Made by a program: the position numbers and the translations under genes
The notes under the pieces: model-generated
The model's input: the letters and a program-made list of their open reading frames with translations, nothing else
Database searches by the model: none
Told to the model about the DNA's origin: nothing
Origin: Torpedo marmorata
Lineage: Eukaryota
Direction of reading: 5' to 3'
Length of the DNA stretch: 64,000 nucleotides
Assembly: GCA_977017645.1 (NCBI GenBank)
Contig: OZ360238.1
Span: 70,370,001-70,434,000 of the forward strand
In this document: one piece after another, positions 128 to 51,122 of the stretch
Position numbering within the stretch: position 1 is the stretch's first letter
Layout of the letters: each line of letters starts with the position of its first letter

Positions 128-183
128 CTAAATTTGGAGAAATCCATTAAATTGGAAAATAGCAAATGTAGTTCCTTTATTCA
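128..183 (+). mobile_element. Old CR1-type LINE RT fragment, left part, split by the Gypsy insertion
   Basis: Translates as PLNWKIANVVPLF, a CR1 RT N-terminal motif. Similar RT sequence resumes after 5713 (..GKLLEAII..). Confidence 0.6.
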
Positions 184-404
184 TGTGATGTTTCTTCTAT
201 TACAATAAAGAAACTTGGGTTATTTTTAAACAACTACATTTATTAACTAAAGCAAACAGCACTAAGAACAGAACACACACAGACAAGACCTCATGTGGAG
301 GCATCCATCTTGATTTGCCCAAGATGCAACACGATTCCCAAGATGCAACAGCTGCCACACAACTCATCTCCGACTCCTCCTAATGGTAGCACACTATCAT
401 TAGA
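184..404 (-). repeat. 3' LTR of Gypsy element 184-5712
   Basis: Near-identical to 5505-5712 and flanked internally by the PPT (minus strand TCAAGGAAAGGGGA). Confidence 0.92.
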
Positions 405-617
405 TCCCCTTTCCTTGAGATGTTTAATCTAACAACATGACACACTAATACAGTATTTTTTCAATTTAAAATTCAACACAAATGTAAACACAAACATCAG
501 CAGCACAAACTTTGAAGTGTGCAGTTCTTTTTCTTTTAGAGATTCAGTCTGTCAGGAGCTTTGATAACACGTATGGATCTTCTTAACACAGGAGCTTGTG
601 TCGCCTCTGCTGGTCCA

Positions 618-3600
618 CTACTGTCTAGCACTGGTGCTGTTTCCTGTTGCTGTGCAGGCTGAATCTTCTGAATCTGTCTGTTCCTGCAGTATCTCTTCCG
701 TTTTCAGAAGGCTCTTTCGATTCCTCCTCAGTATTTGACCATCCTCTGTTCTGACAGTTCCTCCAGAACAGTAGCCTTTTTGTCCCAAGTGTTGGAATCT
801 CTGTGTGTCATGTTGTGCCAGTGGCGCTAAGCTTCTCGTTGACTTGTCATAGTCTGCTTTTTGTCTCACTTGCAGACGCTTTTGTTTCCGTTTGACATCT
901 TCGACATCTCTGTTCTTGTTTGGGTCTGCAGAGTAGGGAAGTGTGGTGCGTAGTCTATGTTCCATGTTCAAGTGGCGAAGCTCTGTAACTCAATAGAGCT
1001 AGATACGGGTCTGAGCCACTGTCTAGTGCTTTCTTGAGCAACTGTTTAACTATGTGAACTCCTAAAGGTGGGGTCCTACAATGACTCCACCTACAAGCAA
1101 CGAGGTAGAACAGTTACTTCAACTGGGAAATGCACCCAAATTTATATCCAGAATGTACTTTGTGCTCCAAGGCGAAAGCCCTAAGCTGGGTATACATAGA
1201 TCGAGGGAGTGGTGGGAGTCGGGCCTGGGTATGACAATTCAGGAGATTTGCTGGTCAAGCTGGTGTCTGAATAGTATGAAGATGGTTATTACTGTTAGAG
1301 ACAGGTTGGTCCTGTATAATTTCTTGCACCAACTATACCTCACACCACAAAAGTTACACAAATCAAAATCCGAAATATCGGAAATGTGTTTCAGATGTGG
1401 TGGAGAAATTGGAACTTTCCTGCACTCCACTTGGTCCTGTGCAAAGGTAAGACCCTTTTGGCATGATATATCTAATACACTAACCAGAATTACGGGAGTA
1501 GCAGTTCCACTGGACCCGGAGTTGTACCTCTTAGGAAATATAATGGACATAAGCTACAAATGATCTAAATTCCAAATTCAATTCGTGCTGGTTGCTTTGT
1601 CCGTAGCAAAAAAATGCATAGCAGTCACTTGGAAGTCCGACTCCCCCCTTCTTATCACTCGATGGTCAGCAGAAATGTGCAGCTGTATTCCTATGGAGAA
1701 AATCACATATAATCTTAGGAATAAATATGATACACTTGTTAAGGTGTGGCAACCATACCTATAGTATATTGGTGTCCAGTTATAATTTAAGCCCTAAAGT
1801 ACAGTACAATGTAATGTATAAATATTGAATGGTGTGACATCTCAAAGAAGGATGAAAAATCAATGTAAGCACTGACAGTACGTTTAGTTTTTTTTCTTTT
1901 TCTTCTGTTTGTTTTACTTCTTTATGTTTTTTTTTCTTTTCAGTTGGGGGGAGGGAGGGAGAGTGTAATAATAATGCTGTGTATAATTGGAAATTGTATA
2001 TTTTTGGTTTATATTGTGAACTTTTATTGAAAATGAAAAATAAAATATTTTTTAAAAAACTATGTGAACTCCTTTCTCTGCTTTACCGTTTGACTGTGGA
2101 TGCAGAGGACCTGAAGTCACATGTTGAAAATCATACTCTTATGCAAAGTTCTAGAATTCTCTACAGCTGTAGCATGGTCCATTGTCACTGTAGACAATTT
2201 GAGGAATTCCATGTCTTGCAAAGATTGATTTCATATATTTGATCACACAAGCAGCAGACATGCTAGGAAGCAGCGCAATCTCCGGATAGTTTGATAGATA
2301 ATCAATAACCAGCAAGTAATTATTTCCATCCATGTAGAACAGATCAGTCACAACTTTCTGCCATGGTTCTGCTGGTAAGTCAGTTATTATGATGGGTTCC
2401 TTTGCCTGCTTTGCGTGATGTTTCAAACAGGTCTCACAGCTGGAAACTATTCTGTCAACGTCAGCGTTTACCCCTGGCCAATAAACAGCAGTTCTGGCCC
2501 TCCTCTTGTATTTTTCCATTCCAAGGTGCCCCTCATGCATGCTTTTCAGCATCTCTTGTCGCAGTGATTGAGGAATGACAATTCTGTTCTGTCTGAGTAG
2601 AAGCCCATTGACAACACTCAGCTCAGCTCTGATGTTGTAGTATGGCTGACATTCACCTCTAGGCCATCCTTCATTCAGATTCTTGATGACCTTCTGTAGA
2701 ACTGTGTCCTTTTCTGTTTCAGCTGCGATCTGCTTGAATTTCATGTCAGATACGGGAAGAGATTCAGTGATCAGATTCACGTGGAGATTCACATCTGTCT
2801 CTGTGGAACTCTCATTGTGTGCTTCACTCTGCGTCGTTGCCCTGGATAAAGCATCAGCTAACACAATAATTTTCCCTGGTGCGTACACCAATTCAAAGTC
2901 ATAACGTTATAGCTTCATCATCAGTCTTTGGATTCTCGGTGACATTTCACTGAGACTTTTCTTGATTATCGCTATTAATGGCTTGTGGTCTGTCTCTGCC
3001 ACAAATGTTGGTAGACCATACACATAACTGAAATTTCTCGAGTCCATAGACCAGACCTAGACACTCTTTCTCGATCTGTGCATATCGACATTCAGATGTT
3101 GTCATCGTCCTTGGTGCGTATGCTACTGGCTTCCAATCTTCTCCTACAGCCTGAAGTAGTACAGCACCTATTCCATCTTTTGAAGCATCCGTAGATATTT
3201 TCGTCCTTCTGGATGCATCAAAGAATGTCAAAAATACTGGTTCTGTAGTTAGAATGGTCTTCAGTCGTCCACATTCTTCCTCGTGGTTGTCTGTCCACTT
3301 GAATTCACATTTGTCCTGTAACAACTTCCTTAGGTACATTGTTTTGGATGACAGGTTTGGTATGAATTTACCAATGAAATTGATCATTCCCAGCACTCTC
3401 AATATGCCTTTTTTTTCAGTGGGTCTGAGCATCTCTAAAATTGCTTTCACCTTGCTCTTGTCTGGCTCCACACCTGCCTCTGACAGTTTATCTCCCAGAA
3501 AGGTGATTTCCTTCACACCAAACTGACATTTTTCTCTGTTTAACTTTAAGCCATATTTCTGGATGCGTTGTAGCACTTTGATGAGCCTTTTGTGTGTTGT

Positions 3601-4560
3601 TCTTGTGTGGATCCCCATAGGATCATGTCATCCATGTACACACGTACCCCATTTATGCCTTCTATGATGTGCTCCATTGTCCTGTGGAACACTTCCAGAG
3701 CTGAGGAAATTCCAAAAGGCATCCTCAGACAGGAGTATCAGCCAATTGGTGTATTAAATGTACAGTATTTTGTGCTATCAACATGCAGTTTTATTTGCTA
3801 GAAGCCCTGGGATGCATCCAATTTAGTGAAAAACTGCACCGGCCATCTCACTTGTAATTTCATCCCTGGTTGCAAGCTGATATGTTTTCTCTTTATATTG
3901 GCATTCAAGTCGTTTGGGTCCATGCACACGCGTAGGTCACCGTTCTTCTTTTTGACACACAACATTGAATTCACCCATTCTGTGGGCTCCTCCACTTTCT
4001 TTATGACCCCTAGTGCCCTCATTCGGTCGAGTTCCTGCTTGAGATTTTATTTTCGTGCCACTGGAACCCGGCCTTGGAGCATGCACTACTGGCTGTGCGT
4101 CCTCCTTTAACTGTATCTTATAGGTGAATGGTAGAACTCCAAACCCCTTGAAGATGTCTGGAAATTGATCCAGTATTTCCTCTACACTGTTCTGTGCATT
4201 GTCACTGTTAATGTGGTACACCCTCTTAACTAGGCTTAAGTTTTCACATGCTTTGTCACCAAGCAGTGAATAATGTCCATCTGGGACTACAATGAACCTG
4301 AGGTGGTGCTCTTTATCTTTAACTTTCACCTTGAGTTTATATGTACCTTTCGTGTCGATGCTCTGTCCATTGTAGGCTTTGAGCAGTGCAGGACTGCATG
4401 GATGTATGGCTTTATCTTCATTGCCCTGATGTTGCACTCACAGATCAAATTGACCTTTGCCCCTGTGTCCAGCTTGAAAGGAATATTTGTTCCATTTGTA
4501 TGCAATGACACAGTCCAGTTATCCTGCTCGACACTGTTCACTTCCTGCACTACCATGCCC
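618..4560 (-). pseudogene. pol: Gypsy pol pseudogene (PR-RT-RNaseH-INT), interrupted by an L1 at 1064-2057
   Basis: ORFs 3937-4437, 3798-4022, 2947-3618, 2151-2891 and 618-971 carry successive pol motifs (FKLDTGA, KLDASQGF, TDASKDGIGAVL, HEGHLG..C..C, SDNGP). Confidence 0.9.
1064..2057 (+). mobile_element. 5'-truncated L1-clade LINE inserted in the Gypsy integrase
   Basis: ORF 1081-1563 has the L1 ORF2 C-terminal motif CFRC..G TFLHSTWSC, followed by a 3' UTR and A-rich tail. 16-bp TSD AACTATGTGAACTCCT at 1048-1063 and 2058-2073. Confidence 0.93.
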
Positions 4561-5387
4561 ATGAAAAGTGTATCACTGAGAGCAGTTTCTTCTATAGTGT
4601 GTACACTTTTACGTCTGTCTTGTTTCCCTTTGGAAAAACATTGCTTTGCATAGTGATTCTGCCCTTTGCACTTATTACAGACTTTCCCATAAGCTGGGCA
4701 TTGTTTAGGCGCATGTTTAGTGCCACATCGTTTACAATTGAATGTCTCTCCATCTTTTTGTTGTTTCCTATATCTCATATTTTGTTTATGTGTGTGGACA
4801 TACACTGTGGCTACGACTATGCCTTAATTTTCACTGGCTTTTACACTATCACCAAACTTTTTCACGTGCTGCAGAGCTAATTCACTGGTATGGCATATCT
4901 TCACAGCTCCAGCTAAGGTAAGCTCTGTCTCATGCAGCAACCTCGCTCTCACTTTCTTATCATTAATTCCGAACACAATTTGATCACGGATCATTGAATT
5001 TTACAGCGGTCCGAAATTGCATGTTCTTGCTTTTAATTTTAAGTCTGTTGCAAAAGTATCTAAGCTCTCTCCCTGCAGCTGCGTGCACGAGAAAAACACG
5101 TACCTCTCGAAGGTTTCATTTTTCTTTGTTGAACAGTGTTCATCAAACATCTCGATAACCTTGTCGAATTTGCTCTGGTCTTCTGCCTCGGCGAAAACAA
5201 ATGTGTTGAAAACTTCTAGAGCTTTAGGTCCCACCATGGTAAGTAGCATTGCAATCTTCCGTGTATCCAGTTTGCTATCAATTCCAATGGCTTGCAGATA
5301 CAGCATGATTCTTTGTTTAAACAACCTCCACTCGTGGTCAACATTTCCAGTCCATTTTACACCATCAGGAGCTTTTAAACTCTCCAT
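4561..5387 (-). pseudogene. gag: Gypsy gag pseudogene
   Basis: N-terminus MESLKAPDGVKWTGNVDHEWRLFKQR (ORF 5001-5387) and two zinc knuckles CKRCGTKHAPKQC and CNKCKGQNHYAKQC (ORF 4326-4805). Confidence 0.88.
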
Positions 5388-5489
5388 ATTTTCTCTGCTG
5401 ATATCGACTGTTACTCACTATGCACACTCCTGGTGTTTCTTCCACTCCTGTGCACACTACTTGTGTTTCACCACTCCTAGCTGTTTCTT

Positions 5490-5504
5490 CCACTCCTGGT
5501 ACCA
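5490..5504 (-). promoter_or_regulatory. Primer-binding site complementary to the 3' end of tRNA-Leu(UAA)
   Basis: Plus strand CCACTCCTGGTACCA matches the 3' end of vertebrate tRNA-Leu(UAA) plus CCA (recalled, not searched). It directly abuts the 5' LTR. Confidence 0.8.
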
Positions 5505-5712
5505 TCTGATGTTTCTTCTACTACAATAAAGAAACTTGGGTTCTTTTTAAACAACTAAAGCAAACAGCACTAAGAACAGAACACACACAGACAAGACCTC
5601 ATGTGGAGGCATCTATCTTGATTCCCCCAAGATGCAACACGATTCCCAAGATGCAACAGCTGCCACACAACTCATCTCTGACTCCTCCTAGTGGTAGCAC
5701 ACTATCACTACA
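5505..5712 (-). repeat. 5' LTR of Gypsy element 184-5712
   Basis: Matches 184-404 and is followed by TSD ATTCA. Confidence 0.92.
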
Positions 5713-5905
5713 ATTCAAAATTTGTGTGAGACTGAAAACGGGTGTGAGACTGCCCAGTTAACTAATCATTTGTCACTGGGAAATTGTTAGAAGCTATTAT
5801 CAAAAGCATGACAGCAAGATACTGAGAAAAAAAATCAATATAATTATGCAAGATTAATGAGTTTTGTAAAAGGGAAATCACGATTGACCAAGTTATCAGA
5901 TTTCA
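5713..5905 (+). mobile_element. Old CR1-type LINE RT fragment, right part
   Basis: Degenerate ..GKLLEAII..FVKGKSRLT.. motifs continue the fragment at 128-183. Confidence 0.55.
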
Positions 5906-22343: not shown

Positions 22344-22758
22344 TTTTACAAGTTTTAATAAATTTGAAGATGATGTAATATTAGCTGTTTCAACTCCTTT
22401 TTATTAGCTAAAATTGAACCATGAAGAGATTAAGAAGTATTTTCTCCGACTATTTTGTTATATTTCACTTATTGAGAAGTTAACCAAGTTGCATCAAAAT
22501 GACGACGTGTTTAACCATAGCAATGTAACCTAGACATTTTAATTGCCACAGGCCACAATCCTCGACATCTGCATTGGGTCAGAATAATCTGTTTTCCATC
22601 TTCTGTAGCCCAGCCATTTTCTATTGAAGAGGTGCATCAGCAGAATTGCTGTTTATATCCCTCCCGACTATGTATCATCCCTCCTTCTCTCAACAACACA
22701 AGCCATCAGTTATCTGCCCTGTACCTCAGTATCCTATGTGAATTTTAACCTTTTACCA

Positions 22759-23002
22759 TGTGGTAAACCACTGTTTGTGTATTGTATGTACTGCTGTCTG
22801 TCCCGGCGACTCCTCTCCCCTCCTTTGGGTGTCCAGGTAATCCCTCCCCTTTTCTCACCTGAATAAAGGCCTGTGTGCCACTGCTCCGCCCACAGTCCGG
22901 GAGAGATCTGCAGGTCTACTGTTGGTCTGTTTTATGTGTATTAAAGCCTATGGTTCGTTAACCCTCTCATAGTCTCTTGAGTGCTAATTGATAGGCATAT
23001 CA
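22759..23002 (+). repeat. 5' LTR
   Basis: Direct repeat of 27048-27291. Confidence 0.97.
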
Positions 23003-23025
23003 ATTTAATACACGTAAGAAAAATT

Positions 23026-26000
23026 ATGGAAGGCGCCCTCCGACCGGACCGACTGGACATCGACCCTTTAGCTCCTGATGCTGGCCATGCTTTCGAACAT
23101 TGGCTACGCTGCCTCCGATCGTTCTCAAAGGAGGTCAAGGCCGAAAGCGACGAGCAGAAACTAGAGGTCCTAGTATCTAGGGTAAGCCCTCGGTTGTATT
23201 CAACCATCTGGAAATGCGGGACGTACGACGAGGCGATGGAGGCACTGAGAAAGATCTATGTGACCCCTGTTAATGAGGTCTACGCGAGGTATAGACTATC
23301 GTTACGAAAACAGCGGGCCGGGGAGTCAATAGTGGACTTTGTCAGGGACATCCAGTCCCTAGTGCGAGCGTGCGCCTGTAAAGCGCTGACTGAAGAACAA
23401 CATGTTGATCTGCTGGAGAGGGACACCTTTATTATGGGGATGAGGTCAGTATACGTACGCCAGCGACTGCTGGAGCACTCTGACCTCGATCTCCGTTCTG
23501 CGGTGGCGATAGCTCGCACGCTGGAGTCCGCGCTGCAGAACTCCGACGCGATGCAGACGCGGGACCCCCAGGCTAATGCGTGGATCGCCCCGTTCCCCAG
23601 CCCCACCGATCCAAATGTGGCCGCTGTGGCCCGCGACCCGATTGCTGCCGCCGCTACCCGCGACCCGACCGCTACAGACGCTACTCTCACCGCCGCAGCT
23701 GTTAATCGCGAGCCCGAGAAGTGCTACTTCTGCGGGCTCGACAAGCATACGAGGAAACGCTGCCCGGCCCGCGACACGACTTGTTCCAACTGCGGCAAGA
23801 AAGGCCACTTCGCGAAGGCCTGCCGCTCCAAGCCGCGCGCGGGCCCGAGTAGTGCCGCGTGCGAGATATGGGAGCGGCCATCTTGCAGACTGGCACTTCC
23901 GGCGCCGACCGCGTGTGAGGAGTGGAAGCGGCCATCTTTCATGCTGGCACTTCCGGCGCCGCCATCTCAGAGCCGTACCTCGTTACTTCCTGCACTTCCG
24001 GCGCCGCCATTTTGTACAGAGACCTCCAGCGACACGTGCAACCCACGGGAGCGGCCATTTTTAAAGACCTCGGACCAAGACGACTTCACCCCAACTTTGG
24101 CATCCATCACCCTCGACCAGAAAGTTCCCCACCAGCTGACAAGATCCATGATGGACATACTGGTCGAGGGACACAAGATAACGTGTTTATTCGACAATGG
24201 CAGCACTGAGAGCTTTATCCACCTGGATACTGTTCAACGCTGTGGCCTAACGATAGTACCGGTAAGCCAGAGGGTGGCCATGGCATCGGGGTCCCACACA
24301 ACAGACATCCGGGGGGCGTGTGTGGCGAACATTGTGGTACAAGGGACTGAGTACCGGCAATTTTCCTTGTTTGTCATGAACCGTTTGTGTGCGCCGGTGT
24401 TACTGGGTTTGGATTTTCAAAGCCATTTGCAGAGCGTTACAATGCGGTATGACGGTCCTCTCCCCGCGATCACTGTAGCCAACCACCAGTTTCTGGATAG
24501 CACGCCCGAAACCACCTGTGGTCTCTCCACCCTTAAGATCTCGCCTCCGTCGTTGTTTGCGAACCTGACCCCGGACTGTAGGCCTGTGGCAACTAAAAGC
24601 AGGCGTTACAGTGCCGAGGACAGAGCATTTATCAAGACAGAGGTACAGAGATTGCTACAGGAAGGGATTATAGAGAAGAGTAATAGTCCCTGGAGAGCCC
24701 AGGTGGTTGTTGTAAAAGGGGCCAAGAGCAGAATGGTGGTGGACTACAGCCAAACCATTAATAGGTTTACGCTACTAGACGCATACCCGCTACCACGGAT
24801 AGCGGAGATGGTGAACCAAATTGCCCAATACCGTCTCTTTTCCACCATCGACTTGAAATCGGCATATCACCAGCTCCCTATCCGTCGGGAGGACCGTTCA
24901 TACACCGCGTTCGAGGCAGATGGCAGGCTGTTCCAATTCCTGCGCCTTCCGTTTGGAGTTACTAATGGTGTTTCTGTTTTTCAGCGGGAGATGGACAGGA
25001 TTGTGGACCATTACAAACTTAAAGCCACTTTCCAATATCTTGACGACATTACCATCTGTGGTTATGATCGTCAGGACCATGACAACAACCTCCGGAGGTT
25101 CCTGCAGGCGGCCAAAGCTCGAAACCTCACGTATAACAAAGAAAAATGCGTGTTTGGTACCACTCGCCTCGCTATTTTGGGGTATGTGGTCGAGAACGGG
25201 GTAATTAGACAAGACCCCGAACGCATGCGGCCCCTGCTGGAACTTCCGCTCCCCACCAATCCCAGAGCCCTTAAACGATGCCTCGGGTTCTTTTCCTATT
25301 ATGCCCAATGGGTCCCAAATTATGCGGATAAAGCCCGACCCCTTGTGAAATCCACTGCATTTCCCCTTGCTTTGGAGGCACGTAAGGCGTTCGACCTTAT
25401 AAAAGGGGACATTGCGCGAGCAACAATGCACGCAGTGGATGAGGAGACACCTTTCCAGGTGGAGAGTGACGCATCGGACTTCGCGCTGGCTGCTACCCTC
25501 AACCAGGCGGGAAGGCCGGTGGCATTTTTCTCTCGAACCCTTCAGGGCCCCGAAATTCGGCACTCAGCGGTGGAGAAGGAAGCCCAGGCCATAGTGGAGG
25601 CCATCAGGCATTGGAGGCACTATCTCGCCGGTAAGCATTTTACCCTGCTGACAGATCAAAGCTCTGTGGCATTCATGTTCAACAATCAGCAGCGGGGTAA
25701 GATCAAAAATGACAAGATCATGAGGTGGAGAATAGAGCTCTCCACCTACAATTACGACATCATGTACCGGCCCGGGAAGCTCAATGAGCCCTCCGATGCT
25801 CTATCCCGGGGATCATGCGCCAGCGCGCAGGTCGACCGATTACACGCCCTACATGACGACCTATGCCACCCAGGAATTACCAGGCTCTTTCACTTCGTGA
25901 AGTCACAGAACCTGCCATACTCCCTGGAAGAGGTCAGGACAATGATCAGCAGTTGCCGGGTTTGCGCGGAGTGCAAACCCCAGTTCTACCGCCCCGACAA

Positions 26001-26961
26001 GGCACAGCTGATCAAAGCCACTCGCCCCTTTGAACGTCTCAGCATTGACTTCAAGGGCCCCCTTCCCTCCACGAACCGCAATGTGTACTTTCTGAACATT
26101 ATTGACGAGTACTCGCGGTTCCCCTTCGCCATTCCCTGCCCCGACACTTCGGCTGCCTCAACCATAAAAGCTCTTCGCCAGGTATTTACGCTGTTTGGCT
26201 TCCCGACCTACATTCATAGCGACCGGGGATCAGCTTTTATGAGTGAGGAGCTGCGCCAGTTCCTGCTGACCCGGGGCATCGCCACTAGTAGGACCACCAC
26301 ATACAACCCCCGAGGTAATGGACAGGTGGAAAGGGAGAACGCCACTGTCTGGAAGGCGGCGCTCCTGGCTCTCAAGTCCAGGGGACTGCCGGTTTCCCGC
26401 TGGCAAGATGTTCTCCCCGAAGCCCTCCATTCGATACGGTCCTTACTGTGAACAGCCACCAATGTAACGCCTCATGAGAGATTTTTCTCCTTCTCCAGGA
26501 GGTCGAACACCGGAACCGCCCTGCCTGCCTGGCTGACGTCTCCGGGGCCGGTGCTGCTCCGCAACCACCTCCGGAGCAGCAAATATGAGCCCGCGGTCCA
26601 GAGGGTGCAGTTAGCGCACGCTAACCCGCAGTACGCCTACGTGGTCTTCCCGGATGGGAGAGAGGACACGGTCTCAATTCGGGACCTGGCGCCCGCGGGA
26701 GCGCCGGAGGAACCTCTCGATGGGCAAGACCACTCGCTGCGGCCCCTCCCTATTCCCTCTTCTACAACGTCAGACCAGGCACCCTCGATGGAACCCACAA
26801 TCCTGCCATCTCACCCAGCACCACAGGAGGAGGCGACGGTCTTGCCATCTTCCCCTGCACCACAACCCGCACCCAGGGTACCCTCTGCACCACAACCCGC
26901 ACCCAGGGTACTGCGCAGGTCACAAAGGCGAGCCAAACCACCGGATCGCCTTGACCTGTAG
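23026..26961 (+). pseudogene. gag-pol: gag-pol polyprotein with one in-frame TGA at 26449-26451
   Basis: Zinc knuckles CYFCGLDKHTRKRC and CSNCGKKGHFAKAC, protease LFDNGS, RT YLDD, RNase H SDASD, integrase H..H..C..C plus D,D,E. ORF 26551-26961 is in the same frame after the stop. Confidence 0.95.
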
Positions 26962-27047
26962 ATTATGACTGTAAATATTTTGAATTCCTGTAGCGATTGT
27001 ATTGTGGCCACTTCACCCCGCTGGACTCTTTTAAAAGGAGGGGTGAA

Positions 27048-27291
27048 TGTGGTAAACCACTGTTTGTGTATTGTATGTACTGCTGTCTGTCCCGGCGACT
27101 CCTCTCCCCTCCTTTGGGTGTCCAGGTAATCCCTCCCCTTTTCTCACCTGAATAAAGGCCTGTGTGCCACTGTTCCACCCACAGTCCGGGAGAGATCTGC
27201 AGGTCTACTGTTGGTCTGTTTTATGTGTATTAAAGCCTATGGTTCGTTAACCCTCTCATAGTCTCTTGAGTGCTAATTAATAGGCATATCA
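27048..27291 (+). repeat. 3' LTR
   Basis: Preceded by the PPT and followed by TSD TACCA. Confidence 0.97.
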
Positions 27292-27489
27292 TACCATTAA
27301 AAGGCTTCTGTCATAGAAGAGGAAAAGAGGAAAGATTGAATATCTTTCTGATTGTAGTAAATGGCTTCCCTGGGAGCACAATACCCATCTTAGCTCTCCA
27401 TTTTTCTCTCCTGCAGTCACAATGGCTTGAACAGGCTTATAAGGACAAATCAGGCTGGGCAAATTTGCTTTTCATTGGAAAAGAGTATA

Positions 27490-32327: not shown

Positions 32328-32834
32328 AATTTAGAATCCCATTTGTAAATAATTTCTTCTTTGGAATCTTCTCCTATATTATTTAATTCTATTTTAATCC
32401 AAGCAGAAGATTTAGTTAAATCAAAAAATTCATTAACAAATTTTAATTGAGCTGCTTTATAATAATTTTGGAAATTAGGAAGTTGTAAACCACCCATTTC
32501 ATAATTCCAAGTTAATTTTTCCATACCTACTCTTGCTAGCTTTCCTTTCCATAAAGATTTTCTAATAATTGAATTTAAATCTTTAAAAATTTTTTGAGGA
32601 ATTCCATAAGGAATTGATTGAAAAAGATATTGAATTCTTGGAAAAACATTCATTTTAATACAGTTTACTCTTCCCATTAAAGTTATAGGTAAATCTTTCC
32701 AGTTTTCTAAATCTTTCTTTATTTTCACAAATAATGGTAAGTAATTTAATTTATATAAATTAGTCAAATTTGTATCAACCTTTATTCCCAAATATTTAAT
32801 TCCTTCCTTAGCCCACTTAAATTGTGTAATTTGT
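32328..32834 (-). mobile_element. Internal L1 ORF2 fragment without a 3' end
   Basis: KYLGIKV..LPITLMGRVNCIKMNVFPRIQY..GGLQLPNF; the overlap with 43160-43349 is closely similar. Confidence 0.88.
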
Positions 32835-34888
32835 AGATGAATATGCTTTAACCCACAAGCCTAAGTGGACGGCAGGCAGAATTTTCCAAAAGGTCACTGT
32901 GGATAATCCCAAGCAAGTGGTAAGTAAATTTGGAAGTGGTGTTAAGGAAAGGGATGAAGGAAAGTGGAAAAGGGAAAACCCTTCGGGTCCCATTTGCCAC
33001 TACTGTAGGAAGGCTGGTCATATGCTAGCAAGCTGTCCAGGTTTGAAAAAGAAGAGAGAAAAGGATGCAACACCTAATGCTTGTATTCAGAGTGAGAAGA
33101 GGCATAACACCCAGGAAGGAGATAAATTTACTGACAAAGTTAAAAATGTATTTAAACCTTTTGTGACTGATGGTTTTGTTTCAGTTAAGGCAGGATCAAA
33201 ACAAGTTCCAGTGAATATCTTGCGAGACACTGGAGCTGCTCAGTCACTTATGTTAGATAGTGTCTTGGAATTTTGTGAAGCTACTGACACCGGTGACATG
33301 AATTTAATTAAAGGAATTGGGGGTGATGTTGAGTCCATTCCTTTGCACAAAATAGTGTTGGACTCAGACTTGGTGGAAGGACCTGTTATAATAGGAGTGA
33401 GATCAAAGTTGCCAGTAGAAGGTGTCTCACTGTTGCTAGGCAATGACTTGGCCAAGGGTAAAGTAGTTCCTGCAGTGCGAATGACCACTAAGCCAGTCAT
33501 TGATAAGTCAAAGAAAGACTCTGATATTTATCCGGCATGCGCCATAACCAGGGCCATGTCTAAGAAAAATGTCACTGTAGAAAAGGCAGTGGAAAATAAC
33601 TTGGTGAAAGAAAAAGTCAGTGATAATCAAGAACACCTGGAAAAGGTTGAGCAATCTCCTGTGTTACACCCATCCACTGATAAGACACCTAAAGGCACAG
33701 ATTTGTCACTGTCCCGACAGGAGCTAATAGCAAGGCAAAAGGACGATCCAGATCTTGCTGAGGTGAGGGATAAGGTTCTCTCTGAAGAGGAGATTAAAAA
33801 GGTGCCAGTGGGTTATTAGGAAAAAGATGGGGTGTTGATGAGAAAGTGGAGACCATGTGATGTTCCTGCCAATGAAGAATGGGCAGTAGTGCAACAGGTT
33901 GTGATCCCTAAAGTATATAGGGATGCAATAATAACTTTGGCTCATAGTACAACCTTAGATGGTCACCTTGGGGTGAAGAAAACTATAAGGAAGATAATGA
34001 AACAATTTTATTGGCCCAGTTTGAGAAGGGAGGTTGTAAGCTTTTGCCAGGCCTGTCACACTTGTCAGGTGGTGGGTAAACCTAATCAGGGTCCCCGGTG
34101 ACACCCTTGCAACCTATCCCTGCTTTCAGTGAGCCTTTCTCGAGAGTGATTGTGGACTGTGTTGACCCATTGCCCAAAACCAAAGCGGGGAATGAGTATT
34201 TGTTAACAATTATGTGTGCAGCCACCAGATTTCCAGAGGCCATCCCTCTGAGAAACATTAAAGCAAAGTTAATTGTAAAGGCTATGGTAAAGCTTTTCAC
34301 CTTGGTAGGTTTGCCAAGGGAAATTCAATCAGATCAGGGCAGAAATTTCATGTCAGGCCTTTTCCAACAAGTGGTTGATGGACTGGGAGTTAAACAGATT
34401 GTATCCTCTGCGTACCATCCAGAAAGTCAAGGGTCCTTGGAGAGGTTCCCTTCGACTTTGAAAACCATGATTAGAACCTATTGTTGTGAGAAGGAAAGGG
34501 ATTGGGATGAGGGGGTTCATTTGTTGTTATTTGCAGTGAGGGAGTCTGTCCAAGAATCACTTGGTTTTAGTCCATTCGAGTTAGTTTTCGGACATGAGGT
34601 GAGAGGTCCTTTAAGATTATTAAAAGAACAGTGGATTCATAGTGAGGTGCATTTAAATCTGTTAGATTATGTTTCAAAATTTAAGGATCGTTTGCATAGG
34701 GCTTGTGAGATGGCAAAGGAGAATTTAAAGGCCACTCAACAGAGAATGAAGGTTTGGTATGATCAAAAGTCTAAGATGAGAACTTTTAAACCTGGTGAGA
34801 ACGTATTAGTTCTGTTCGCCATCCATTCAAATCCTCTTAGGGCTAGATTTTCAGGACACTATAGAGTTAAGTCAAAAATTAATGATGT
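32835..34888 (+). mobile_element. Gmr1-like Gypsy element, gag-PR-INT part
   Basis: Zinc knuckle CHYCRKAGHMLASC, protease LRDTGA, integrase H..GHLG..C..C, QSDQG and HPESQGSLER. The frame continues KINDV-TYVIETP across the L1 insertion. Confidence 0.9.
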
Positions 34889-35030
34889 GGGGGGACGTCA
34901 CGTGATGCCGTAGGGTTAGGACGCAGTAACCCGACCCTCCTGGGATTGTTAAAAAAAGTTCGATTAAAAAATGTTTCTAAAAGTTCTAACTTTCTTAAAA
35001 AAGTATTTAAGTACCAGTAAAAAAGTAACA

Positions 35031-40400: not shown

Positions 40401-40764
40401 ATGTGTTGCTCTACATCCAAGACCCTGTTGACTCTCTCAAATTTAAAGAATAAATATTGTTGAATACCACGCGTCGAGCCGTGGACCCAGCAGTGATCCA
40501 TTTAGATGCTTTTGATAAGAAATACCAATGCCTTCTTTTCTTATCTTTTCTTTTAGTTTTTAGTAAGGGGAGGGAATTAAAGGGAGGGGAAGGGTGGAGG
40601 GTGGGCAACATTTATAGAGGGTGGGTTAAGGGATGGGTTAGATACACTGTAATACAAATTATGTTTTTCTTAGTTACTGGAATTAATAATGTATATTACG
40701 TATGTTGTATTACTGTGAGAAAATTTAAAATTTAAAATAAAATAATTTTTTTTAAAAATAAATA

Positions 40765-41868
40765 AATGATGTCACCTATGTCATAGAAACACCTAATCGC
40801 AGACTAGACACACAGGTCTGTCATGTGAATATGATTAAGCCATATTTTGAACAGGTGCCGCACAAAGAGACTGAACATTTATCAGAGGTACTGGTTATTG
40901 ATCAGGGTAAGGAGGAGACAGATAAAACCAGTTTCAGAGAGGGTCATGGGACACAGAAATTGATAAGCCCAAGGCTAGAAAATTCCATGATTTTGCGCAA
41001 TCTGGAGACAAAGTTGGCTCATCTGAAAACTTCCGAAAAGGAAGAGATGAGTCAGTTATTTTTAAAATTTATAAATTTATTTCCCGATGTGCCTCAAAAA
41101 ATTTCCATCGCTTATCATGATGTGGATATAGGAGATGCAAGACCGATAAAACAGCATCCCTATCGAATCAATGTGGAAAAGTGCAAACTGGTAGATCATG
41201 AAATTGACTACATGGTAAAGAACAATATCATTCGAAAGTCTACTTCCAATTGGAGTTCCCCTTGTGTTTTAGTGCCTAAGCCTGATGGAACAGTTAGGTT
41301 TTGCACTGATTATAGGAAAGTAAATGCTGTAACAAAGACAGATGCTTATCCTATTCCTAGAATAGACGATTGTATAGACAAGGTGGGGAAGGCCAAATTT
41401 CTTACAAAAATGAACTTATAAAAAGGGTACTGGTGTGTTCCTTTGACAAAAAGGGCTAGGGAGATTTCTGCATTCGTAACACCTTTTGGGCTGTATGAAT
41501 ATAATGTTATGCCTTTTGGTATGAAGAATGCTCCAGGAACATTTCAGAGAATGATTAATTCAGTAATTCAAGGGTTGAAAAACACAGGTGCTTACATTGA
41601 TGATTTAATTGTAAGTAGTGACACCTGGGAAGAGCATGTCTTTGAGCTAAAACAATTGTTCGAACGACTGTCCAAAGCAAATCTCACAGTTAATTTAAGT
41701 AAAAGTGAGTTTGGACATGCTACTGTTATTTATCTGGGTTATGTAGTAGGACAGGGGCAGTTGGCGCCAGTAGAGGCAAAGGTTGTGACTATTTACGAGT
41801 TCCCTGTTCCAACTGGTAAGAAAACTCTGAGGAGGTTCCTGGGAATGATTGGCTACTACCGCAAGTTC
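40765..41868 (+). mobile_element. Gmr1-like Gypsy element, INT tail and RT part, truncated before RNase H
   Basis: CHVNMIKPY integrase tail, then PIKQHPYR, RFCTDYRKVN, MPFGMKNAPGTFQR and YIDD. Confidence 0.9.
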
Positions 41869-44528: not shown

Positions 44529-45619
44529 AAAATATTTTCATGGGACATATCACATGAGTGCATTTTCTGTTCCAAATTTTGAGATATTGAATAATTTCTA
44601 ATTACTGTTTTCCAGTGCTTCAAATTTTCTCTTTACTATTTGATCTGAAATATTGAACCACTTATTTTTTTTGGGAGTAGATGGCTACAGGATAACAGAA
44701 GAGAGGAATTTCTAATGCTTGATCTTCTTGGTGAGGCAGGATCCGTAGGGGGACTTTGCGACCTCTCAGGACTCGTGGCCTTTTCGGGAAATACCTCCTC
44801 CTCGGCTGGTTCTAGGGACTGTGAGCCCTGTCTTTGGTGCGCCCCATTCGGAATTTGGGCTGTACTGCTCTCCTGAGCAGCCGACGTTGAAGGAGCTTCA
44901 TCTCTTGAAGTTATTTCAGGAATGTCGTCATTGGAATGCGCCCAAAATGGAAAGTCTTGAAGATCGTCTGTATTGGACACGGACACTTGATCATCTTCTG
45001 CCTTTAACTGGTCGATGTGTCGCTTCCATATTTTAGTTCCCACCAGTATAGAATATGAACATGGACTCAGCTTTTTAAGAATCACGCCTCTTATCCACAT
45101 CTCTTTATTGTCCCGGTAATCCCGTACCAGTACTCGCTCTCCTACTTCCAGAGATCGGGTTGGCTTACTCGGAGATGTGGCTTGTTCGATACGAAGGCCG
45201 ATGTTCGGGTGCACTGTAGACAGTCGGGTACTTAAGTCACGCCCAAACATCAATTCCGCTGGCGTCCGTTTTGTAGTGGAGTGCGGTATGTTTCTATACG
45301 CCAATATAAAATCCGCGATTTTGTGATTCCATGATACGTTTAGTGATTTCTTAATTTTCATGGCTTTATTAAATGTTTGAACAAAACGTTCAGCTTCCCC
45401 ATCCATGCTTGGGTGGTAGGGCGCCGACAAGATCTGTCGTATATTGTTATTACGTAGGAACACTTTAAAAGCATCAGAAACAAACTGAGGTCCATTATCG
45501 GAGACTAGTTCCATAGGTAATCCATATGACGCAAACATATTTCGTAGTCTCTCAATTGTTGTTGTCCGCATGTGCGATACTACTGGCCATTTGGAGTGTG
45601 CATCGACCACAATCAGGAA

Positions 45620-47847
45620 TTTTTTAATTTTATTTTAAGTTTTCAAATTTTTCACAATAATACAAAATAGTACAAAATATATGATAGACATTAATGAGTT
45701 CAATACAAACAAAATTCGTATTACCGTGATTCTAACCCCATCTCAACCCACCCTCACTAAAACAACCCACCCTCCACCCTTCCCATCCCTTACTCCCTCC
45801 CCTTACTAAAGATAAAGAAAAAAGAAGAAAGAGGAGAAGACATTAACATTTATCAAAAAAAACATCCGTACGGGTCCACGGCTCGGTGTGAGACATTCAA
45901 CAGTATTCATTCTTTAAGTTTAAATTTAAGAGAGTCAGCAGGGTCTAGGATGTAGAACAACACATTTAAATATTCATTCCTAATAATTGGATAAATGGAC
46001 GCCAAATTTGCAAAAATACCCCATATTTATTCCTCATATTATATGCTATTCTTTCCAATGGAATACAACTCCGCATCTCTGAGTTCCATCTATCCATACT
46101 TAAATTTGCATCCGATTTCCAAGTTACTGCTATACATTTCCTTGCTACTGCTAATGCAATTTTTACAAATTTCAATTGCCATGTAGATAACTTCAATTTT
46201 GGTCTCGTTCCTTCCACATTTCCCAATAAAAATAAGTCAGGATTCTGTGGAAATGTAACACCTGTAATTTGTTTTAACCGGTTTCCTAACTCTATCCAAA
46301 AACCTTTAACTTTTGGACATGACTACGTTTTGTGTAAAAAGGTTCCCTCTTCTTCACCACATCTAAAACATCTATTTGATATCGTAGAATTTATCTTATT
46401 CAATTTTTGTGGTGTAAGATATAATTGATGTAAAAAGTTATATTGTACCAATCTATATCTTACATTAACAGTATTAGTCATACTATCTAAACATAAATCC
46501 GACCACCTTTTTTCATCAATTGTACATTAAGATCTTGTTCCCATCTTTGTCTAGATTTATGAAGTCCTCGTTTTAAAGCTCCCCTTTGTAGCAAAGAATA
46601 CACTATAGAAGTAAATTTCTTAATATTTCCTTTCCTAATAAGAGTTTCTACCTCACTACAATCTTGTAACAACAAATCTGGACCTAGTTTTTCTCTTAAA
46701 TAACCTCTTAGTTGAAAATAACAAAAAAGAGTATTATTAGGTATTCCATATTTATTCCGTAGTTGTATAAATGACATCAATTGATTTCCTTCCTAGCAAT
46801 CTTCTATCTTCTTTATTCCTTTTAATGACCAAGTATTTAAAAATTGATTATCTTTTGTAAATGGTATAAGATTATTCTGTATCAAAGGCACTTTGGGTGA
46901 TATACTTCCTTTCAACCCTATGTCATCATTAACCTTATTCCAAACATTAATCAAATGTTTTAATAACGGTGTTTCTTTAACACCTGTCAATAGTTTTGAA
47001 TTCCATTTGTATATAAATTCTTGTGGTACCTTTTCTCCTATTTCTCCTAGTTCTATTCCAACCCACGCAGGTCTTTCTTCAGTTTCAAAAAAAGAAGCAA
47101 CAAATCGCATTTGTGCCGCTCGATAATAATTCTTAAAATTAGGGAGTTGCAAACCCCCCAATTCATATTTCCATGTTAAACGTTCCATTGAAACTCTTGA
47201 CATTTTACCTTTCCATAAAAATTTTCGCACTTGTTTATTTAAGTCCTGGAAGAAAACCTGTGGTAATAAAATAGGTATAGTCTGATACAAATACTGTATC
47301 CTTGGAAATATATTCATTTTGATACAGTTAACTCTTCCTATCAATGTAATTGGTAAATTAGTCCACTTTTCTCAATCCTCCTTAATCTTGTTAAGTAATG
47401 GTACATAGTTCCATTTATATAGATTTTTTAATTTATTATCTGTCCGAACCCCAAGATATTTTATTCCATTATGTGGCCATTTAAACTGAGTAGTTCTTTT
47501 GCATACAGTATAGTCTCCCTCTGTAAGAGGCATAACTTCACTTTTATCCCAATTTATCTTGTAACCAGAGACTTTTCCATATTCCTCCAGTTTGAAATGT
47601 AGTCTTTGCAAAGAAGTCTCAGGCTCTGTCAAGTATATTAAAACATCATCCGCAAATAGACTAATTTTATGTTGCTCTTGACCAACTGTAAATCCATAAA
47701 TTGCCAAATCACTTCTAATAGCCTCTGCTAACGGTTCTATAGCTAATACAAATAAAGCTGGTGACAATGGACACCCTTGCCGACTAGATTTTGTTAAACA
47801 AAACGAAGTTGATATTTGTCCATTGGTCACTACTTTAGCTTTTGGAG
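45620..47847 (-). mobile_element. 5'-truncated L1, same subfamily as 34889-40764, inserted in the Gypsy integrase
   Basis: ORFs 47372-47830, 46793-47344, 46487-46780 and 45966-46226 match that ORF2. TSD AATCAGGAA at 45611-45619 and 47848-47856. Confidence 0.93.
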
Positions 47848-50800
47848 AATCAGGAAATTTTCATCCATAAATGGACCAGCGAAATCCACGTGAATTCTAT
47901 GCCATGGTCGTGATGGCCATTTCCATGGGTTAGCTTCGGCTTGAGGTGCTTTGGGCTGCGTCTCCTAACAAATGTAACATCTTCTCACCATCTGTTCAAT
48001 ATCGATGTCAATTGACAGCCACCACACATGCATACGTGCTGGGGCTTTCATTTGGACCATCCCTGGGTGATTGTTGTGTAGCTCTAATAATATGGCAGTT
48101 TGCCATTTCTTGGGGATGATTTTCCTTGCTCCCCACAATAAACAGCCTTCTTCGATCGATATTTCATTGCGTCATGTATAATAAGGTTTCAGTTCGGGCG
48201 AATAATGTCGATTTCGGGCTACCCATTCAATGTAAAATATAGGACCTTCGACAGTGTAGCTTCTTTCCGTACTTCTTTGCTGATAGTCTTTGCTGTAATC
48301 GGTAAGTGAAGAAGTTGTTCTTGATTAATAGCTGTAGCTTCCGCCGTCCATTTAATTGTTTCTTCTTCATGTTCAGTTTCAGGCAGAGGCAAGCATGATA
48401 AGGCATCGGCATGGCCATTTTGTTTTGCCGGTTTATGTTTTAAGTCATAATCGTATGCAGCGAGCTCCATGGCCCACCTCTGAATTCTAGTCGCAGGTAT
48501 TACCGGAATGCCTTTTTTAGGTCCTAAAATTAAACTCAGTGGCTTGTTGTCTGTTACCAAGGTGAACTTCCTACCGTACAAGTATTGGTGAAATCGCTTG
48601 AGACCAAATATTATGGCGAGTCCTTCTTTTTCCAGTTGTGCATAATTACGTTCACAAGCCGTCAAAGAGCAGGAGGCGTAAGCCACAGGTTGTTCTCCTT
48701 TTTCTGTGACCTGTGACAACACCGCACCCAAACCTACTGGTGAAGCATCCACCGCCAGACTCACATCCTTCTCTGGGTCGTAGTGGACCAGAACATTATC
48801 GGTTGAAGTCAGCAGTTCTTTCAAACGATTGAACGCATTACTTGTTTCTTTATTCCAGCACAATTTCTGATCTTTTCTTAACAATTGGTTCAGTGGGTTG
48901 CACAGTGTTGACATGTTAGGAACGTGCTTCCGATAATGGTTAACCAAACCCAAGAATGATTGTAATTCTACTCTATTTGATGGGTAGGGTGCTCTGCTGA
49001 CAGCCTCGGTACCAGCCGTATCCATTCGGACTCCTTCACTATTTATTGTGAAACCCAGATATGTTACTGAGGGTACCATAAATACACCTTTGTCTCGGCG
49101 TAAACGGACATTTGCTTGTGGTAATCGGGTTAGGACCTTTTCCAAGTTTGATAGATGCTCTGCGTTGTCCCGACCTGTAATAATGATGTCATCGAGGTAG
49201 CATCCAACATTTATTCCATGTAACAATTTGTCCATAACCGCTTGAAATATGGCCGGGGCTGCTGATATTCCGTATGACATTCTAGTGTAAGTGAACAATC
49301 CCAAACGAGTATTGATTGCCACATACTTTTTTGATGCCTCATCCAATTCGATTTGCTGATATGCCTGTGATAAATCCAGTTTTGTGAACTTTTTTCCCCC
49401 ATTCATGGCTTGATACAGCTCCTCCGCTCTGGGCATGGGATGTTCCAGTATTTTCAGAGCTTGATTAATGGTGACTTTGTAATCACCACAAACGCAAATT
49501 TCCCCATTGGGTTTTCTGACGGGCACGATAGGAGCTGCCCAATCACTATATTGAAGTCGTTCAATGATTCCTTCGTTTTCCAATCTGTTAAGTTCTGACT
49601 CAATCTTTCCTTTTATTGCAAAAGGTACCGTCCTTGACTTATAAAATTTGGGTTCAACACCAGGTTTCAATTGCAACTTCGCCTGGACTCCTTGAATTTT
49701 TCCCAGGCCTTTTGCAAAAATCGTTTGATACTTCTTGAGTACTTGCTCCACCTTCGATTTGGGTTCACCCTCAGTATACACCTTCATTACTGACCCAATT
49801 TCCATCCAATCCAGTTGGATGTGCGACAACCAGTTTCTTCCAAACAACACCGGCCCCTTTGTGTCCACGATGTAGAGGGGTAATTTGTTCGATGTCTGTC
49901 ACTTATATTCGACGTCTACTTTACATTTCCCAAGCACCTTGACTTTCTCCCCTGTGACCGTTTACAACACCATGTCAGACTGTTTCATGGTAAGATGGGG
50001 TAATAGCTGTGTTTTCAAATTTATTGGCATTAGAGGCACAGGTGCTCCCATGTCCAACTCCATCTGAAGCGGTTCATTGTTGACTTTAACCTGGATATAC
50101 ATTTCTGATTTCTTATCCATTATACTGTGAATATACATTACTTTCATTGCCTTGTCTTCCTCGGAGTCATTAGTTTTACTGTTCGGGCTTTCTTCATTCT
50201 CCCCCACATTTTTCACTTTGGACGCCTGTTTATTTTATTTGGGTTTCTGATTTTTCTCCTTTCCTCCACTTTCTCTTTTTTGTGGACATTTGTCACATAG
50301 ATGACAACTGGCTTTTTTGAAATAACAATTATCTGGACTGTGGTTACTTTTTCCGCAGCAGAAGCATTCTCGTCGGTTTAATTTTCCCACTACCTGCAAC
50401 TCTCCTTGTATGATATCCATGTTTTGGCTGGCCATCTCGAAACTTAAGGCAGTATCGTACGCAGACTTAATGTCTAATTCTTTCTTACTCAGCAATCGTT
50501 GCTGGGAATTGTGGTCAGCCAAACCCATGACTAACCTGTCCCTTAATGCTTTGCTCAGGAACTCTCCAAAATTACAACTTTCCGACAGTCTGCGCAATTT
50601 GGCCAAATATTCGCTTACAGTTTAGCTTGCTTTTTGTTTTCTGGAATAAAGTTTGTATCTTTCTGCAATTACTACTGGTTTAGGTGATAGGTATTCTCCT
50701 CCCACTACACACAAATCCTCATAAGACTTAGTACTCGGTCTCTCGGGTGCCAAAAGGGATTTCATCAGTTTATATGTCTTGCTTCCCACTTCGCTTAGAA

Positions 50801-51063
50801 ACAGTGCCTATTTCCTTCTGAAAGCCAGTGTATCTGTCATATTATGAGCAAGACAGAACATATGAAATCTCTCCAAGTAGTCACACCAGCCTTCTGATTC
50901 TTTGAATTCTCCAAAACGTCCTTCCGCCATTTTGAATCTTCTTTTCTTTGTTCTCTGTGCATCAGCCTGTGTGGATTACTGTGGTCTTCGTCTTCCAATC
51001 TTCTAATCTTCCGACCTTCCAATCTTCTCTCCAACGTTCGGAGTGTAGAAGAAGTTCTTTTTT

Positions 51064-51076
51064 ATCCTCGTCGCCA
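51064..51076 (-). promoter_or_regulatory. Primer-binding site complementary to the 3' end of tRNA-Ser(GCU)
   Basis: Plus strand ATCCTCGTCGCCA (minus TGGCGACGAGGAT), 3 nt from the LTR end. tRNA identity is recalled, not searched. Confidence 0.75.
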
Positions 51077-51122
51077 ATCTGTTGTGTATTCTAGGCTTAG
51101 AAATACACTTGCACATGGAGAC

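Follow-up and report, generated by a model that had tools for sequence, protein, structure and literature searches.

The compact Ty3/Gypsy element at 22759-27291 (+) of the 64,000-nt stretch of Torpedo marmorata DNA analysed here (the window) belongs to a lineage of animal elements whose primer-binding site (PBS) is not of the tRNA-derived TGG type and is complementary instead to a segment, or arm, of the element's own 5' LTR. The arms differ from one relative to another and yet stay paired with their own PBS, and we are confident that reverse transcription in this lineage is self-primed in some form. With appreciably less assurance, we also favor a particular version of self-priming, in which the primer would be a 5' piece of the element's RNA about 54 nt long, cut at the end of the pairing.

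Assignment of the element to Ty3/Gypsy rests on its LTRs, polypurine tract (PPT), TSD and pol order PR-RT-RH-IN (Table 1). The two 244-bp LTRs, with ends TG..CA, differ from each other at 3 positions, the leader between the 5' LTR and the gag-pol frame is 23 nt long, and an in-frame stop at 26449-26451, within integrase, interrupts gag-pol in this copy. A DNA search of the host genome (6.2 Gb) gave 1173 candidates, and the 40 that were scored are all 98-100% identical; the family is young and high-copy. In family G000, which is very young, about 46 of the 150 copies listed have open frames of at least 1300 codons. The end of the polyprotein (26961, and its equivalent in many relatives) often carries a motif of the type RRS.R..(K/R)PPDRL, and a similar word, M...RPDRLD, stands at the start of gag.

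Table 1. Coordinates of the element and of the parts proposed to take part in its priming.
Feature	Positions	Strand	Basis or remark
Left TSD, TACCA	22754..22758	+	right copy at 27292-27296
5' LTR, 244 bp, TG..CA	22759..23002	+	sequence
TATA-like element AATAAAGG, 30 nt before the putative RNA start	22862..22869	+	sequence; role putative
Inr-like CCCACA; putative RNA start A22892 (22892-22894)	22889..22894	+	run-on copies end here
Predicted self-primer, ~54 nt	22892..22945	+	inferred
LTR arm pairing with the PBS; core 22932-22945; ends ATTAAA	22930..22945	+	pairing, covariation
Second stem, 22946-22951 with 22991-22996; putative cut 22945/22946	22946..22996	+	predicted structure
8-bp hairpin across the LTR end; minor alternative fold	22986..23005	+	host-genome families only
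Non-tRNA primer-binding site, 1 nt past the LTR end	23004..23019	+	pairing, absent TGG
Single gag-pol frame: gag, zinc knuckles, PR, RT, RNase H, IN	23026..26961	+	no chromodomain
Polypurine tract, 5' of the 3' LTR	27033..27047	+	sequence
3' LTR	27048..27291	+	sequence

The initial annotation had described 16 pairs, 2 of them G-U, between 23004-23019 and 22930-22945, in normal PBS geometry. The coordinates are right and so is the geometry: a single A follows the LTR end (..CATATCA), and the PBS runs from 23004. Among 3000 dinucleotide shuffles of the LTR, none reached at least 10 Watson-Crick pairs or at least 16 pairs with G-U, and folding of the pairing region gives z = -3.2. One of the two G-U pairs is a minority allele within the family, since A stands at 23014 in 28 of the 30 closest copies retrieved, which then have 14 Watson-Crick pairs in a row. 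Double changes occur within families, too, and in this one affect 22938:23011, where G-C has become C-G in 5 copies and A-T in 2 others, and one of the latter carries another PBS change. Four normal copies (L371, L372, L373 and L384) have A in place of G at PBS position 15, which extends the perfect pairing and may reflect either longer copying of the primer or slippage in a run of A.

None of the 30 closest family copies has a TGG site, so the absence reported for this copy is not a loss peculiar to it. The two other Gypsy elements of the window in which this region is preserved, both decayed (150-5760 (-) and about 44600-51100 (-)), do keep TGG-type primer sites, at the LTR near 5503-5710 (-) and in the element near 51,000 (-), and the contrast originally drawn with them holds. 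A comparison with host tRNAs, suggested as a check, found no match to the PBS among 50 tRNA genes, a set with only 10 anticodons from which the cognate tRNAs of both TGG controls are absent; the best run anchored on 3'-CCA was 1 nt and the best internal run 5 nt. An Rfam scan gave nothing near threshold. The 8-bp hairpin to which the annotation had drawn attention is indeed in the sequence, but it is a minor fold outside the conserved core, competing with the main fold at a pair probability of 0.07-0.08 and measuring 5-8 bp in 9 host-genome clusters and at most 4 bp in 13 other clusters.

The pairing extends far beyond this family. A query with the RT-RNase H region retrieved 1470 proteins among 8000 scored. 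Their named members span corals, sea anemones, nematodes, a sea cucumber, a spider, sharks and rays, with ray sequences the closest at 82-84% in RT-RNase H. The viral contigs searched contained no relative. Lineage DNA came from host-genome families and from 63 metagenome loci, 30 of which include the gag start, and gave 181 loci, one of them too short; the remaining 180 fell into 25 clusters at 85% identity. At least 10 contiguous Watson-Crick pairs with the element's own LTR were present in 19 of the 25 cluster representatives versus 6 of 600 non-cognate pairings. Of the six representatives that fall short, two are mutated copies with paired siblings, three are degenerate or mixed, and one is a contig lacking an LTR. 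A register set by motifs only could be placed in 153 of the 180 loci (27 lack an anchor), representing 22 clusters and 20 distinct arms, and over duplex positions 1-13 these clusters show 279 Watson-Crick pairs, 1 G-U pair and 6 mismatches in 286 cells. Positions 1-4 are set by the motif anchors, and the test is carried by positions 5-13, where 96.5% of pairs are Watson-Crick versus 58.8% in permutations; 0 of 20000 permutations reach the observed value, a count that is not a probability because the clusters are related. One duplex position shows up to four pair types, six clusters hold two or three fully paired variants, and pairing is kept across RT domains only 54-63% identical. The covariation between the two segments for which the initial annotation had proposed to look in relatives is strong.

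The duplex has a fixed geometry of a 1-nt spacer, TAAA then RC(C/T), and a second stem. The spacer between PBS and LTR is 1 nt in 22 of 22 clusters (a value set by the anchor, which LTR pairs confirm in 13 loci), GCC or ACC follows the arm in 21 clusters, and the predicted second stem starts there in 21. Pairing is uniform over 13-14 nt; across the 153 loci it is 0.87 at position 14 but only 0.14 at position 15, where most copies retain a G-U. At position 10 the pair G22936:C23013 is invariant in all 22 clusters while the flanking pairs vary, possibly as a contact for RT or RNase H. G-U makes up 1 of 286 cells in the arm versus 35 of 248 pairs in the neighboring predicted stems, a rarity that templated copying would fit better than selection on an RNA stem alone. 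The arm contains AATAAA or ATTAAA in 19 of the 22 clusters, which extends to the lineage the earlier remark that a likely poly(A) signal lies within the paired segment, and masking of the 5' signal by the duplex would be plausible; in the predicted fold, the ATTAAA of the 3' LTR is paired as well, with other partners.

If the RNA starts near 22892, then 22932-22945 would fold onto the PBS, stacked on the second stem, and the element's RNase H, a domain that is present in the frame, would cut near 22945/22946, as in Tf1. Extension of the new 3' end through U5 would yield about 58 nt of strong-stop DNA, which would jump to the 3' end of the RNA by a short overlap downstream of 22946. Plus-strand synthesis would then copy about 14 nt of the primer and so rewrite the PBS in every cycle, and because the PBS would be rewritten from the primer each time, the two arms would be kept Watson-Crick complementary. 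The RNA start, cut site and poly(A) site of this scheme are all inferred from sequence. The motif AATAAAGG at 22862-22869, which we read as TATA-like and which is also kept in sister families, could also serve as a poly(A) signal, and with this upstream AATAAA the RNA could end before the arm; CCCACA resembles the Inr consensus. The limit of copying at about 14 nt of a 54-nt primer might be set by a predicted hairpin at 22893-22929, in the 5' part of the putative primer, which abuts the arm, or by RNase H trimming. A hairpin from the putative start is strong in the window family (z -2.9) and not in sister families, and since the latter show none as strong, we do not use it as support.

Some of the evidence for the long primer comes from rearranged genomic copies. 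If the arm is the primer, then a plus strand that at times runs on into it would leave the LTR end joined to the reverse complement of the LTR upstream of 22945. This junction was found 53 times in the window family (0 in the control), 49 times in sister families and in 15 of 19 matches in a subfamily, for a total of 117, with search patterns that needed at least 16-20 nt and are blind to shorter inverted parts. By itself the junction does not identify the mechanism, since the same one arises from any switch between two inverted 14-bp arms, and 81 of the 117 copies reach the LTR start, as expected of plus-strand DNA fold-back. In the other 36 the inverted part ends inside the LTR, and 12 of these end 50-55 nt upstream of the arm end. 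Within the window family, 7 of 15 internal ends lie at 22891-22894 (52-55 nt), the Inr-like site, a concentration reached in 11 of 20000 simulations under a decay model (scan p ~0.0006) or in 42 of 20000 once two repeated junctions are set aside; these ends join at least 5 different acceptors, some of them without microhomology. Sister families have 5 of 18 ends in the homologous window, which was fixed beforehand (p ~0.005), or 4 of 15 (p ~0.015) without one repeat and two internal deletions, and the subfamily, a third and small set, has 0 of 3 internal ends in the 50-55 nt window. Several of the 50-55 nt ends show imperfect or real microhomology to the acceptor, and a weak stem over 22891-22895 in the U3-containing template of the window family, absent from sister families, could make the enzyme stall nearby in that family. 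The run-on ends are indirect evidence for an RNA start near 22892, and not downstream of 22945, where the initial annotation had recognized that a start would be incompatible with priming by the arm.

Ten other copies start their U5 stretch at 22942-22960, at the 3' edge of the arm or no more than 14 nt from it; at least 5 of these junctions lack microhomology and two have an unplaced partner. The U5 starts cluster there in 7 of 30 cases in the first set (scan p 0.06) and in 3 of 8 in the subfamily (p 0.01, fixed window); the 46-58 nt cluster was weak in the first set, and the pile-up is post hoc and of small numbers. These junctions fit strong-stop DNA or cut RNA ending at the arm edge, and their pile-up is suggestive, though only suggestive, of an RNase H cut at the edge of the duplex. 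A search for junctions exactly at 22946 preceded by two non-A bases, run without a control, gave 1 match that was already in the set, poly(A)-tailed processed copies ending 10-25 nt after the arm numbered 0, and a comparison of alleles between the inverted copy and its own LTR did not separate RNA from DNA templates.

Other rearrangements recur in these families. LTR-like insertions with an inverted copy of the U5 end occur in G000 (L320, L322, L350, L353, L359, L360, L362 and L365), and the same insertions are seen in L272, L368 and L381, recurrently across several families; the inverted piece, 25-30 nt long, sits at the arm end, after which the normal LTR resumes. In L270, L309, L310, L316 and L383 the break is at or beside the upstream AATAAA/GGCC (the equivalent of 22867), a context that resembles the TAAA/GCC of the arm end, and microhomology may explain some of these breaks.

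Priming could be exactly as in Tf1, with the RNA starting at about 22930-22932 and its first 13-16 nt alone acting as primer, although we consider this unlikely. The uniform pairing of 13-14 nt and its sharp fall after position 14 would follow, the stop of copying would be explained without extra steps, and the Tf1 primer is itself the first 11 nt of the transcript, according to passages in PMC7175516. Yet the run-ons cluster at 50-55 nt rather than at 14-16 (in a search whose patterns needed at least 16-20 nt), the TATA-like (22862) and Inr-like (22892) motifs are kept in sister families, and no TATA-like motif is seen 30 nt upstream of 22932. More doubtful still is a primer made from the 3' LTR copy of the arm (27219-27234) after removal of the tail, acting in cis or from a second packaged RNA, with the 5' end left uncut and R spanning 22892-22945. 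This arrangement would supply 54 nt of homology for the first jump and require no overlap downstream of the cut, and several rearranged copies (L274, L312, L315, L325, L352, L374 and L375) do continue from the arm into the PPT and the 3' internal region. A mis-directed plus-strand jump also explains these long run-ons, however, and the junctions gather at 22946-22960 with no sharp peak at 22892, where the strong-stop DNA of such a primer would end.

The arm and PBS might, on the other hand, form a regulatory stem, of the kind that masks a poly(A) signal or of the U5-leader type, with some other host RNA as the primer, which we judge improbable to much the same degree or slightly more so. The poly(A)-like hexamer in the arms of 19 of the 22 clusters would suit such a stem, and the tRNAs compared covered only 50 genes and 10 anticodons. 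But 20 different arms track their own PBS, so that about as many host RNAs would be required, and the stem would occlude the sole place available to a primer; the arm is also nearly free of G-U, and in every one of the 22 clusters its 3' edge keeps a distance of exactly 1 nt to the LTR end (the spacer being anchor-set, with 13 loci confirmed). That the complementarity has no function, as a product of chance or of inversion at the DNA level, is scarcely credible: the sequence is AT-rich and inverted repeats do rearrange, but no shuffle among 3000 and 6 non-cognate pairings among 600 match the level observed, and the pairing persists across RT domains 54-63% identical. Chance complementarity was rejected on the covariation.

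A PBS complementary to the element's own 5' LTR is described for Tf1 and Tf2 of S. pombe, Tj1 of S. japonicus, Tf1/sushi elements and Tcn1, and elements of the Tf1 type have no tRNA PBS and obtain their primer from an RNase H cut (passages in PMC7175516, PMC4600332, PMC5341516 and PMC6317226). The lineage resembles Tf1/sushi in having no TGG-type PBS and a PBS that covaries with its own 5' LTR, but differs in lacking a chromodomain and in not nesting with chromodomain-type anchors. Its arm seems to be set back about 40 nt from the RNA start, for a predicted primer of ~54 nt versus 11 nt in Tf1, and unlike that of Tf1 it holds a poly(A)-like hexamer and the invariant G-C at position 10. In Tf1 a U5 stem beside the duplex is reportedly required. 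Retroviruses also pair LTR RNA beside the PBS, in U5-IR and U5-leader stems, and their 5' poly(A) hairpin holds the poly(A) signal; there, however, the TGG site is outside the stem and still occupied by a tRNA, whereas in the lineage the stem occupies the PBS itself. Self-priming has been predicted from LTR/PBS complementarity in the plant Ty1/copia TAR lineage (Houba, Osr-1; a passage in PMC6317226), and since this prediction falls outside the Tf1 group, repeated origins have already been proposed; it is the same predicted self-priming as here, in another superfamily and other hosts. Primer sites without a tRNA also figure in the literature on Skipper, GalEa and bivalve TRIMs.

As initially reported, no chromodomain is visible, nor is an SH3_Tf2-type integrase C-terminus: the C-terminal 169 aa have no Pfam match, and PF00385 and PF24626 are absent among the listed lineage proteins; the best solved relative is Ty3 Gag-Pol. 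In a 44-row tree, which is unrooted, has long branches and has anchors labelled by domain content rather than by named references, a 100/100 branch separates 37 lineage rows from 3 chromodomain-type rows (grouped 100/99), 3 Mag-like rows and 1 PNMA-gag row. The RT is 31-33% identical to the chromodomain-type anchors, and AU tests on a 15-row subset reject joining the lineage with P0051 and/or P0055 (p 0.0007-0.007). By these sequence comparisons the lineage is placed outside the Tf1/sushi chromoviruses, and its priming likely arose independently of Tf1. The independent origin proposed at first is upheld in part: the tests reject nesting with two chromodomain-type anchors but would still allow the lineage as sister to all chromoviruses (support 53/7 in the 15-row subset). 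Nor is the lineage nested among the 3 Mag-like rows; a sister relation to Mag is not rejected (AU p 0.47), and the lineage has no TGG tRNA PBS of the kind used to define the Mag clade. The decayed Gypsy element at about 44600-51100 (-) clusters with Mag-like RTs. Gmr1 elements have an integrase-first pol order, and membership in that group is ruled out by the order found here.

Cigr-1 of Ciona is a compact element with LTRs of about 245 bp, one ORF and a gag related to that of echinoderm Mag-type elements. Its compact one-ORF layout and LTR length resemble those of the element here, and we take the Cigr-1 clade to be a candidate name for the lineage. A Repbase-style Gypsy group reportedly called 'Self' may be another. 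In PMC4746887 'self' occurs 5 times as a whole word next to names of Gypsy clades, which may bear on an existing name for the clade. The Cigr-1 clade is reported in molluscs and annelids, and one supplement row places Cigr-1 under Mag (PMC6238403, PMC8556966); the PBS goes unmentioned in these two main texts, and a motif search of 5 supplements of PMC6238403 gave 0 matches.

A literature search, with subscription papers, Repbase and GyDB outside its reach, found no report of self-priming for this lineage, and an earlier note of its PBS in the literature or databases is possible. To our knowledge, fission-yeast Tf1 is the one element in which self-priming has been proven; for the relatives of Tf1 and a few plant lineages it has been proposed. 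What is new here, we suggest, is the set of rearranged copies that join the LTR end to an inverted LTR arm, together with the predicted primer of about 54 nt. Our fullest reading, offered as a tentative proposal, is that priming without a tRNA arose apart from Tf1 in a large Gypsy clade of animals (corals, sea anemones, nematodes, sea cucumbers, a spider, sharks and rays), which would use a capped 5' fragment of ~54 nt whose last 14 nt would carry the poly(A) signal, so that one duplex would silence that signal, mark the RNase H cut (TAAA then RCC, with an invariant G at position 10) and rewrite the PBS, while mis-copies would record the primer 5' end and the cut. If this is correct, then tRNA-free priming, present in an animal clade outside the chromoviruses with 1470 database proteins, would count as a recurrent solution, and the clade would bear on whether hairpin priming is ancestral, as discussed in PMC3601003. 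The lineage would presumably be invisible both to tRNA-based PBS annotation and to silencing by tRNA fragments, and its RNase H would be a second enzyme that may cleave RNA:RNA, one whose sequence code is readable. Mapping primer ends from rearranged copies, with the genome alone, would be applicable to other candidate self-priming lineages.

Elsewhere in the window, at 32830-34910 and 40762-41868 (+), the remains of an LTR element interrupted by LINEs have a zinc knuckle and integrase upstream of an RT-like stretch, possibly an integrase-first order.
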